NCBI RefSeq assembly: GCF_054482595.1
Contig: NZ_CM137008.1
Length of the DNA stretch: 64,000 nucleotides
Direction: 5' to 3' (one strand)
This document shows positions 2,191 to 8,085 of this stretch, in pieces (the first letter of the stretch is position 1; every line of letters begins with the position of its first letter). The notes beneath the pieces were generated by a model. The model searched no databases, had not been told where the DNA came from, and saw only the letters and a program-made list of their open reading frames with translations. Both the position numbers and the translations under genes were made by a program.

Positions 2191-5100
2191 TTAGAACGTT
2201 TTCTTAAAGTTCAGCATCACGCCTTTGTCGCTGATGCCGTCCTCTTTCCAGTGATACGCATCCAGATTCAGCGAACTTTCTTTGCTACTGTACTTCACGC
2301 CGACGCTCGCCAGGCTGTTGATACCGCCGCCCTTCTGACCGTCATCGACGTTAAAGTGCTGGCTGCCTGCCCCTGCAAGGCTTGCCGTGCGCTGGCTCTT
2401 GCTGTAGCTCAGGTTCGGCCCGCCTTCCAGCGTCGCATTCGCGCTCCAGCCGCCTTTCCCTGCGTAGTCCAGTTTCAGCCCGACGATGCTGTCCACCGCC
2501 GTTTCGCTGCCACTGTTCATATTCAGGTTAAAGTCTCCGGCATTGCGCTCCTGATAGCCACCTTCCAGTGTGTGACGCAGTTTTACACCCGCATATGGCG
2601 TAACCTTCAGTCCTTCGCTCGGTTCGAAAGTCTTCGCCACTTCGCTGCGGAACTCCAGGTACTGCTGCTTCACGTCGGTATCAGCCGTTTTGTTTGTGTT
2701 GCTAAATGCAATCGAACGGCTACTGTCAAGGTTGTGAACGTCATAACGCAATGCGTTATTCCAGTTCATGCCGTTGTCGAAGGACATCTGGTGCTTCAGG
2801 CCAAAGAACTGGCTATAACCACCTGTGACGCCATTATCACCCGCTTTCTGCGCACCATCACCATCGAGACGAGCGATACCGTACTCCAGACTCATCGTCT
2901 GGCTTTCGCTCAGGTCGATGGTTTTACGCAATGCCAGCATGTCGTATTCGGTATTATTACCTAACTCGGCACGTGGATCGCCTTTCGCAACAACGTTGAA
3001 CGCCAGACCGTTACCCACCTTCGGCGCGGCATCCGCCAGCATGCTGAAGCGGTTGCTTAACACACGCGCTTCACGGAATACCGTGGTCGCCTGGCTACCG
3101 CTCACCTGCTTCAGGGCGCTATTCAGTTCAGCAGTGGTGCCCACGTTCAGGCTGGTATACAGCTCGTTATTGGTGTAACCCGCATCCAGTGCCTTCGCCA
3201 CATCGTTCACCGAAGCATCGGTCGCCACATCGGTGTAGGCGTTTTTGCTCATGATGACGTCAACGTTGCCGCTGGCATCGGTGCTGCCTTTGGCGGTCCA
3301 TACCACGGACGTTGAGGTGATGGCATCGGCGTCGGTCAGGTTGATGCCTTCCACCACGTTGTCGAAACTGACCGTGGTGTCTGCCGTACCGGCGGCGAAA
3401 CCGGTGTTGATCCCGACACCATTCATGCTGGCGTTGTTAACCTTCAGTTTACCGGCGCTGCCGTCAACGTTGGTACCGACGATATAGCCGTTGAGGTTGT
3501 TACTGCTGCCATCGCTACTACCGCTATCAGTCGTTTCACTGAAAGGTGAAGTGGTGTAAGTGTTTGGCATGTCCGGCAACGTGTAGTCGGTGTAATGCAC
3601 TTCGGTATTGTTACCGCTGTTGCCGTTCACCCCTTCCACATTCACGCTGTCGCCCTGCTTAATCAACCCCGAACCAGTCACGCCGTCGGCAATCACCACC
3701 GTACCGTTGTTAACGATATGACCTTCTGTGCCCAGTACGCTGAACGCAAACGAGTCGTTAGCAAAAATATTGATCGTGCCGTTGTTCTCAATTACCGCAT
3801 CGGCGGTGGCATTGGCATCCAGTTGCATACCAGTCAATCCGGTATCGGTGGTGCCTTCGGTGCCGAGATTGATAACGCCGTTGTTAACCAGTTGTGCGTT
3901 TTTATCACCTTCCATCGCCACGGCATTGTTGCCGCTGATGTTCATCACGCCATCGTTGAGGGCAACATAGTTGTTGTGGGTGAATTTAACTGCGCTGGCG
4001 TTGTCTTTATCGAAGTTAATCACCCCGCCATCCTGGTTCCACAGGAAGGCATCGCTTTCTGTCGCACCAGCGGTACTTACCGCCACAGTGACTTTCGCAT
4101 CCACCACGCCCTTGTTAATAAACTGGCTGGCGCCGTCGTCATAGTGAATAGCGCCCGCGCCAAGTGCGGCATCCAGCGTCATTTCACCGGTGTTATATAA
4201 CGTGGCGTTAGCATTGCTTCCCTGGAAGCGAATGGCGTTTTTACTGTTATCAAGGATGAGCTTGCCGCTGTTGTTGAACGTTGATTGGTCGTCAATATCC
4301 AGCGTCCCGGCATTGTTATTTTCATCCTGATAACCCATTTTCCAGGTCCCCGCGTTATTCACCACCGCAGAGTTATAGAGAATGGCACCTTTACGCGCCT
4401 CGCCGCCTGCAAGGTTATTGAATACAGCATCGCCCTGGGCGTTAACGCGCGCCGACGCGATACCGCTGTTATTCACCGTGCCATCGTTAAGCTGTAAGGT
4501 TGACAGTGAACCGGTATTATTAATTACCGCGTTGCTGTTTTTCTCAATTTTTACGACGTCATTAAGCGTTCCGTTGTTATTGAAGGTTCCTCCTTCCAGA
4601 GTCACCGTGTTCAATACACCTTCATTGGTTAACGCACCGCCTTCATTCACGACGATGGCTGAGCTAATGGTTCCGCTCGACTCGTTAACCAGCGCACCAT
4701 TTTCGAGTATCCTGATCGTTCCATTTTTAACAGCACCCGCACTGGTGACATCCCCGTTGATAATCGCACCTGACGATAATAATACGGTCTCACCCGCAGA
4801 ACTTAATACATCGCCATCATCATATAAATCGGCAATATAATTATCCGTTGGATTATATTCATCGGCCCCCTGGCAAACGCCAAAGGTACAAATTGTGCCA
4901 TAGTTGATAATAAGCCCAGTGCCATCGTTATAGAATGCCTGACCATTTTCCGCGTTAATGTTGATTACGCCTGTCTGGTCATTAATGGCGGTGCCTTCGT
5001 GATAAACCGCCATGCCGACGAGTTTATTCACACCGAGAGAATCGTTGTAATTTTCATTTTTCTCCAGGTTGATGGTTCCCTGGTTAATGACCGTATTAGT

Positions 5101-8085: not shown

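Follow-up and report, generated by a model that had tools for sequence, protein, structure and literature searches.

In the literature, the proteins YdbA of Escherichia coli and BigA of Salmonella enterica ('surface-exposed virulence protein') are mentioned in annotation, in pseudogene lists, in repeat typing and in one bioinformatic classification, that of Celik et al. 2012, in which the BigA passenger was termed 'AIDA-I-like' and the barrel was placed in the NalP group (PMC3419190). The relationship of the two is reflected in the Pfam family PF25784, described as 'BigA and YdbA N-terminal beta barrel domain'. The name BigA is also borne by an immunoglobulin-like adhesin of Brucella that is unrelated to the Salmonella protein, and several papers conflate the two. 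Here we describe the gene at the ydbA locus in a stretch of 64,000 nucleotides from contig NZ_CM137008.1 (RefSeq assembly GCF_054482595.1), referred to below as the window. The locus holds a single open reading frame (ORF) on the minus strand at 2191–8085, which very probably is an intact, functional ydbA-locus allele coding for a classical, monomeric type Va autotransporter of the BigA/YdbA family of Enterobacterales. Such a gene is in itself ordinary and already known: it is annotated in RefSeq, the family is covered by the Pfam models BigA_N and BigA_beta and by the NCBIfam BigA model, and full-length ydbA outside K-12 has been published, about 42% of the genomes of phylogroup A having it (PMC4951805). 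The only part of the finding with some potential for novelty is an under-described cassette of N-terminal segments that recurs throughout the family.

The gene is complete, with 1964 codons and a stop codon at 2191–2193 (RefSeq WP_065311097.1). An earlier note on this DNA had reported an uninterrupted ORF of this length at these positions, leaving the strand unstated, and the ORF is confirmed. An open frame of this size is not a product of chance, since the probability of 1964 stop-free codons is (61/64)^1964, or about e^-94. The earliest in-frame ATG, at 8124, would give 1977 residues and is backed by no homologue. We rejected it in favour of the ATG at 8085, which is preceded by a Shine–Dalgarno sequence (AAGGAA, 8–13 nt upstream), gives a protein beginning with MQRKKLL, where all homologues share an MQRK or MQKK start, and is the start used in RefSeq for strain XH990, in which the DNA of the whole gene is 100% identical; 8085 is therefore the likely translation start. 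The independent assemblies H42, H43, XJ34, ETEC6335 and Combat11I9 likewise carry this gene or a close relative of it in intact form, and therefore a frameshift artefact of the assembly is unlikely.

The domain order was deduced from sequence and from structure prediction, with Pfam-A scans covering residues 1–1100 and 965–1964 and AlphaFold2 models built from family alignments for the N-terminal and C-terminal halves separately. It is predicted to run from a signal peptide through a cysteine loop, a hydrophobic helix and a proline-rich repeat to the BigA_N domain, a β-helix, a disordered linker, the BigA_beta domain, a helical linker and the barrel. The signal peptide noted earlier is present (residues 1–21, MQRKKLLSVCVAMALSSQTWA, 8023–8085), with the n-region MQRKK, the hydrophobic core LLSVCVAMAL and a probable signal peptidase I site TWA/AD; it was assigned by inspection and by conservation across the homologues. 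A lipoprotein signal at Cys10 was considered and rejected, as only nine residues precede the cysteine, LSVC is no lipobox and the cysteine is missing in several homologues. BigA_N (PF25784) occupies residues 234–314 (7144–7386) over the full length of the model (E-value 5.4e-33), and AlphaFold2 placed strands at residues 240–315 with a predicted local distance difference test score (pLDDT) of about 80–90.

Structure prediction, which had been proposed as a check, gave a right-handed parallel β-helix as the passenger at residues 315–1476 (3658–7143), with pLDDT mostly above 85 and concordant evidence from Foldseek and autocorrelation, the latter showing a 24-residue periodicity within residues 320–660. 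The core is indeed rich in Gly, Asn and Thr (13.7, 12.5 and 9.4%, respectively), and its Foldseek matches comprised Fap2, Ag43, TibA and pertactin and also, generically, lyases of polysaccharide lyase family 6 (PL6) and phage tailspikes. The passenger is followed by a linker predicted to be disordered (residues 1477–1532, 3490–3657, pLDDT below 50), by the BigA_beta sandwich (PF25783, residues 1533–1616, 3238–3489; E-value 5.9e-24 over the full model length, with AlphaFold2 strands) and by an α-helical linker (residues 1617–1693, 3007–3237), for which AlphaFold2 predicted helices at residues 1617–1685 (model residues 653–721). The C-terminal barrel of the earlier note is recognisable by Pfam, AlphaFold2 and Foldseek alike: a translocator of approximately 12 strands at residues 1694–1964 (2194–3006), in which the Autotransporter β-domain PF03797 spans residues 1738–1935 (E-value 3.4e-18) and which ends in LNFKKTF with an aromatic C-terminal residue. 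Its Foldseek matches were EstA, EspP, AaaA, NalP, BrkA and Hbp, with E-values down to 5e-7, and the best target-normalised template modelling (TM) score was 0.65, with NalP. Overall pLDDT was 82 for the C-terminal half and above 90 from residue 320 onwards in the N-terminal half; a sequence search of solved structures gave no match.

The protein thus combines the hallmarks of type Va (a signal peptide seen by inspection, a barrel of some 12 strands, a predicted helical linker and a predicted β-helix passenger) with those of the BigA/YdbA family (BigA_N, BigA_beta between passenger and barrel, and a position beside pdxI/ydbC). It shares BigA_N, BigA_beta, the barrel and the N-terminal cassette with Salmonella BigA, of which it is a relative rather than BigA itself. 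With Ag43, AIDA-I and TibA it has in common the type Va architecture and a long right-handed β-helix, and Foldseek aligned the passenger to Ag43 and TibA; however, the TM-scores were low (0.15–0.39), and BigA_N, BigA_beta and the N-terminal cassette do not occur in those proteins. NalP is a lipoprotein subtilisin protease whose N-terminal hydrophobic lipid anchor stays on it during secretion, whereas the window protein has no usable lipobox, Cys10 being unconserved, and no protease domain.

The cassette was examined in 25 homologues (25–54% identity) from Escherichia, Salmonella, Citrobacter, Enterobacter, Rahnella and Pantoea, and the same layout after the signal peptide was found in every one of them: a Cys-x18-Cys loop, a Gly/Ala-rich hydrophobic segment of 19–21 residues that often begins with WxW, a stretch rich in Asn, Asp, Gly and His, an acidic and usually proline-rich repeat, and then BigA_N. 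In the window protein the loop, with a probable disulfide, is formed by Cys41 and Cys60 (CPANIHSLSKEQLENLSAEC, 7906–7965), which are the sole invariant columns among the 1000 residues of this protein covered by a 29-sequence alignment (A1). The spacing of 18 residues was counted in 22 of the 25 homologues; it is 20 in P0018 and 21 in P0073, and in P0023 an earlier, spurious cysteine pair was picked up by the count. The hydrophobic segment follows at residues 67–88 (AVLPWAAAGLAAVATGIAIYTL, 7822–7887), contains the highest-scoring Kyte–Doolittle 19-mer of the protein (1.86), and is its sole segment of membrane-spanning length and hydrophobicity.

The repeat that follows is an in-frame 30-bp tandem repeat at 7399–7779, to which Tandem Repeats Finder assigned 12.8 copies and in which 13 PVPPDDGGDT units were counted; it encodes an acidic, proline-rich spacer at residues ~102–233. 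In Salmonella bigA, a proline-rich tandem repeat at the equivalent position is the variable-number tandem-repeat (VNTR) locus STTR3 of multiple-locus VNTR analysis (MLVA; PMC5183578), and the conserved hydrophobic and proline-rich N-terminal cassette is carried by the whole BigA/YdbA family, including the host protein of STTR3. Across the family the length of the spacer varies from 23 to 168 residues, a range that disfavours a fixed-distance tether spanning the periplasm. Searches of a set of 5.8 billion proteins, made with the N-terminal 102 residues and with a profile of 24 cassette sequences, both retrieved just short fragments at contig ends (E. coli, E. albertii and Salmonella, with one from Rahnella) and so gave no information on other architectures.

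Two further observations concern the cassette. Directly after the hydrophobic helix, residues 89–101 (SDDDNHHHNNSPV, 7783–7821) form a cluster of Asp, Asn and His that recurs in most homologues, His being present in this spacer in 22 of the 25; the cluster might serve in metal binding or pH sensing. In addition, in P0064, a distant, metagenome-derived autotransporter of 1396 residues whose signal peptide is extended (MNKTYRVVFNAAIGAWIAVPE...), the passenger is likewise preceded by a Cys pair, by a hydrophobic segment rich in Gly and Ala and by PVPDP repeats, and to judge from this sequence the cassette may extend beyond Enterobacterales.

As to where the cassette would be placed, established autotransporter biology suggests that the protein would be exported by Sec, that the β-barrel assembly machinery (BAM) would insert the barrel into the outer membrane and that the passenger would be threaded to the cell surface from its C to its N terminus, so that a long rigid β-helix would stand out from the cell and bear, at its far tip, the flexible acidic spacer and the hydrophobic helix. 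The alternative of an inner-membrane stop-transfer anchor was rejected: once the signal peptide had been cleaved, such an anchor would keep both passenger and barrel in the cytoplasm, and it is also countered by the non-basic flanks of the helix and by a Hessa-scale sum similar to that of poly-Ala. That sum is marginal in the window protein (+2.5) and ranges from +0.4 to +3.7 across the family. In nearly all members neither flank is net positive, the exceptions being two with +1 or +2 on the N-terminal side, and the C-terminal flank is acidic in all 25 homologues, its net charge ranging from −3 to −10. Both properties are consistent with passage through Sec rather than anchoring in the inner membrane.

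We considered, tentatively and by analogy, that the cassette may be a displayed module at the distal tip of the β-helix that inserts into membranes or drives oligomerisation. The nearest precedent is VacA of Helicobacter pylori, as an analogy and not as a homologue: the N terminus of its passenger likewise has a sole membrane-length, uncharged and Gly-rich hydrophobic segment, and this GXXXG-containing region is needed for channel formation (PMC4926140). The VacA segment directly follows the signal peptide and has three tandem GXXXG motifs, whereas that of the window protein lies some 45 residues further on, beyond a Cys loop, and precedes an acidic proline-rich spacer. Should the window protein act primarily in this manner, it would be a membrane-active or self-associating factor rather than a plain adhesin, its tip helix on the acidic spacer inserting into membranes or zipping molecules together. 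This possibility is favoured by the presence of the helix in 25 of 25 homologues, by the small-xxx-small patterns within it and a nearly invariant Gly75, by the lack of any other segment able to span a membrane, and by the fit of its flanks and hydrophobicity to Sec passage; nevertheless we regard it as doubtful. Besides small-xxx-small pairs, the helix of the window protein has a single triple (AxxxAxxxG), the number in the homologues being 0 to 5 and at least three in about half of them. AlphaFold2 did not model residues 67–88 as helical, pLDDT being below 50 for residues 1–227 save for ~56 over the Cys-loop region. The Pfam scan of residues 1–1100 gave BigA_N only, and no VacA family turned up in the Pfam scans, nor any match when solved structures were searched by sequence. 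If the cassette were such a module, the autotransporters that bear it would be a distinct functional subclass of type Va, with the length of the repeat tuning their reach.

Synteny with K-12 ydbA is set by pdxI (ydbC), the conserved downstream neighbour (1111–1971, minus strand); the upstream neighbour is ydbL (8493–8816, minus strand), and the neighbours were read from the annotation of XH990 and W3110. In the annotation of K-12 W3110, the gene beside pdxI consists of two partial pseudogenes with the IS30 and IS2 transposase genes between them, in agreement with the earlier description of a K-12 ydbA split by these two insertion sequences. The window gene and K-12 ydbA share the locus, the domain order and the N-terminal cassette; the window gene differs in being intact and in a proline repeat that is ~95 residues longer. 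The interpretation in the earlier note, an intact autotransporter gene where K-12 has a disrupted one, is supported, with the correction that the window gene is no mere K-12 gene without its insertions. Residues 1344–1964 are 85–97% identical to K-12, save for the predicted disordered linker at 64%, and similarity at the DNA level (about 89–91%) is found over the last 1862 bp of the gene and runs on into pdxI. By contrast, residues 22–1343 are only 37–59% identical, the short proline repeat excepted, and the signal peptide is 71% identical.

The divergence continues upstream of the start codon. The AT-rich intergenic region at 8086–8492 (minus strand; 408 bp, about 30% GC) has no similarity to the DNA upstream of K-12 ydbA and directly abuts ydbL, the feaRB-tynA-paa cluster of ~20 kb that lies between ydbL and ydbA in K-12 being absent; this agrees with the designation of the locus as a 'region of heterogeneity' (PMC4951805). 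The one promoter-like site in the intergenic region is a consensus match, TTGAAG-16-TATAAT, at 8279–8252. The window gene is a divergent allele rather than an undisrupted K-12 gene, and the locus is mosaic, the translocator third being conserved while the passenger and promoter linked to it vary. Because passenger and promoter have been replaced, the window protein is poorly represented by the K-12 pseudogene. The homologue P0016 was considered as an intact K-12-type allele and rejected, its N-terminal part being just 64% identical to K-12; it is another mosaic.

The true counterpart of the window gene is the allele of the O157:H7/O55:H7 lineage, which has the same passenger type, is ~96% identical in DNA along its whole length and is likewise flanked by ydbL and pdxI. 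The difference lies in the codon equivalent to Q1072 of the window protein (4870–4872, minus strand), where CAG has become a stop codon in that lineage (TFGVC*GADEY in the alignment with O157:H7 strain 8368). Strain 8368 also has six fewer repeat units, 7 as compared with 13 in the window. In O157 genomes the gene is annotated as two CDS, the halves of which carry several different product names. The window therefore carries the intact form of the allele inactivated in O157:H7, and the two alleles constitute a natural intact/inactivated pair for functional study. The window passenger type was found in 372 of 5426 complete E. coli genomes. Among 60 evenly sampled rows of these, about 50 belonged to the O157:H7 or O55:H7 lineage and about one sixth had intact copies, or roughly 1% of all complete genomes. 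An N-terminal half of the K-12 type was found in 1073 genomes and was often intact.

Comparison of the window gene with three intact alleles (XJ34, ETEC6335 and Combat11I9) gave a ratio of nonsynonymous to synonymous substitution rates (dN/dS) of 0.07–0.11 over the whole gene and of no more than 0.20 in every region. These values indicate strong purifying selection and hence a gene that is functional rather than decaying. Between the intact alleles, dS was 0 in the first 101 codons, 0.23–0.31 in the passenger and 0.03–0.09 in the barrel, an unevenness that probably reflects intragenic recombination breakpoints. The 30-bp repeat differed by whole units only (7, 11, 12, 13 in the window, and 14). 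Taken together, the alleles show a gene that has repeatedly been lost, through IS2 and IS30 in K-12 and through a nonsense codon in O157:H7, yet is strongly constrained where it is intact.

Several points weigh against an intact and functional member of the BigA/YdbA family. The NCBIfam 'exception' model NF033178 gave 1083.7 bits, which is far below its cut-off of 3400, and its strongest match was confined to the C-terminal third. The Pfam-A scans of the two protein stretches yielded nothing but BigA_N, BigA_beta and Autotransporter, with no AIDA, Ag43 or pertactin repeat and no adhesin-type repeat family. In the literature searched, there were no expression, localisation or binding data for the protein or its homologues, no experimental function reported for E. 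coli YdbA or Salmonella BigA, and no experimental work on the passenger. That the gene was inactivated independently in K-12, in O157:H7 and in Salmonella lineages shows it to be dispensable in some niches. Furthermore, the upstream region had only one consensus promoter match, as compared with 9.6 expected in shuffled sequences for the whole of the region scanned, and a GC content of 30% upstream is typical of silenced, horizontally acquired DNA.

A rival explanation is that the gene is intact but cryptic: transcriptionally silent in most conditions, it would make no contribution in this strain and would in effect be heading for the pseudogene state seen in K-12 and O157:H7. Besides the AT-rich upstream DNA (GC 0.30) and the repeated independent losses, this explanation can draw on the bigA pseudogenes of host-adapted Salmonella (PMC8011750) and on the increase of K-12 ydbA transcription in the absence of the RNA polymerase omega subunit, which suggests that it is normally low (PMC5811629). 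We nonetheless consider it unlikely: a whole-gene dN/dS as low as that given above, at dS of up to 0.3, requires long-term selection on the protein, and the repeat has changed by in-frame 30-bp units only.

For the intact, functional autotransporter, the most likely role is that of a surface adhesin or biofilm factor, an assignment made by analogy, on the grounds of family resemblance, which we would put at about an even chance. That the passenger is instead a surface-displayed enzyme, such as a polysaccharide lyase or hydrolase on a β-helix scaffold, is highly improbable. It might be suggested by the Foldseek matches to PL6 alginate lyases, a fucoidan lyase and phage tailspikes and by the RefSeq name 'pectate lyase-fold domain-containing protein' of some alleles, but these Foldseek matches reflect the generic β-helix (TM-scores of 0.13–0.3, identities of 9–12%, Foldseek probabilities mostly below 0.7), no lyase or hydrolase family was found in the Pfam scans, and the passenger varies by 40–60% between alleles of one locus, unlike a conserved active site.

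Some minor observations were made on the annotation and surroundings of the gene. Several alleles of the ydbA locus are labelled in RefSeq as 'EntS/YbdA MFS transporter' (MFS, major facilitator superfamily), for example in NZ_CP069441.1, NZ_CP120563.1 and NZ_CP158445.1 (strain 536), which looks like a mix-up of the names ydbA and ybdA that is propagating. A scan with Rfam showed no RNA family inside or beside the autotransporter gene. Elsewhere in the window, it located three small RNAs in their expected K-12-like neighbourhoods: MicC at 17457–17577 (minus strand), which adjoins ompN, FnrS at 22388–22505 (minus strand) and McaS at 25883–25978 (plus strand).

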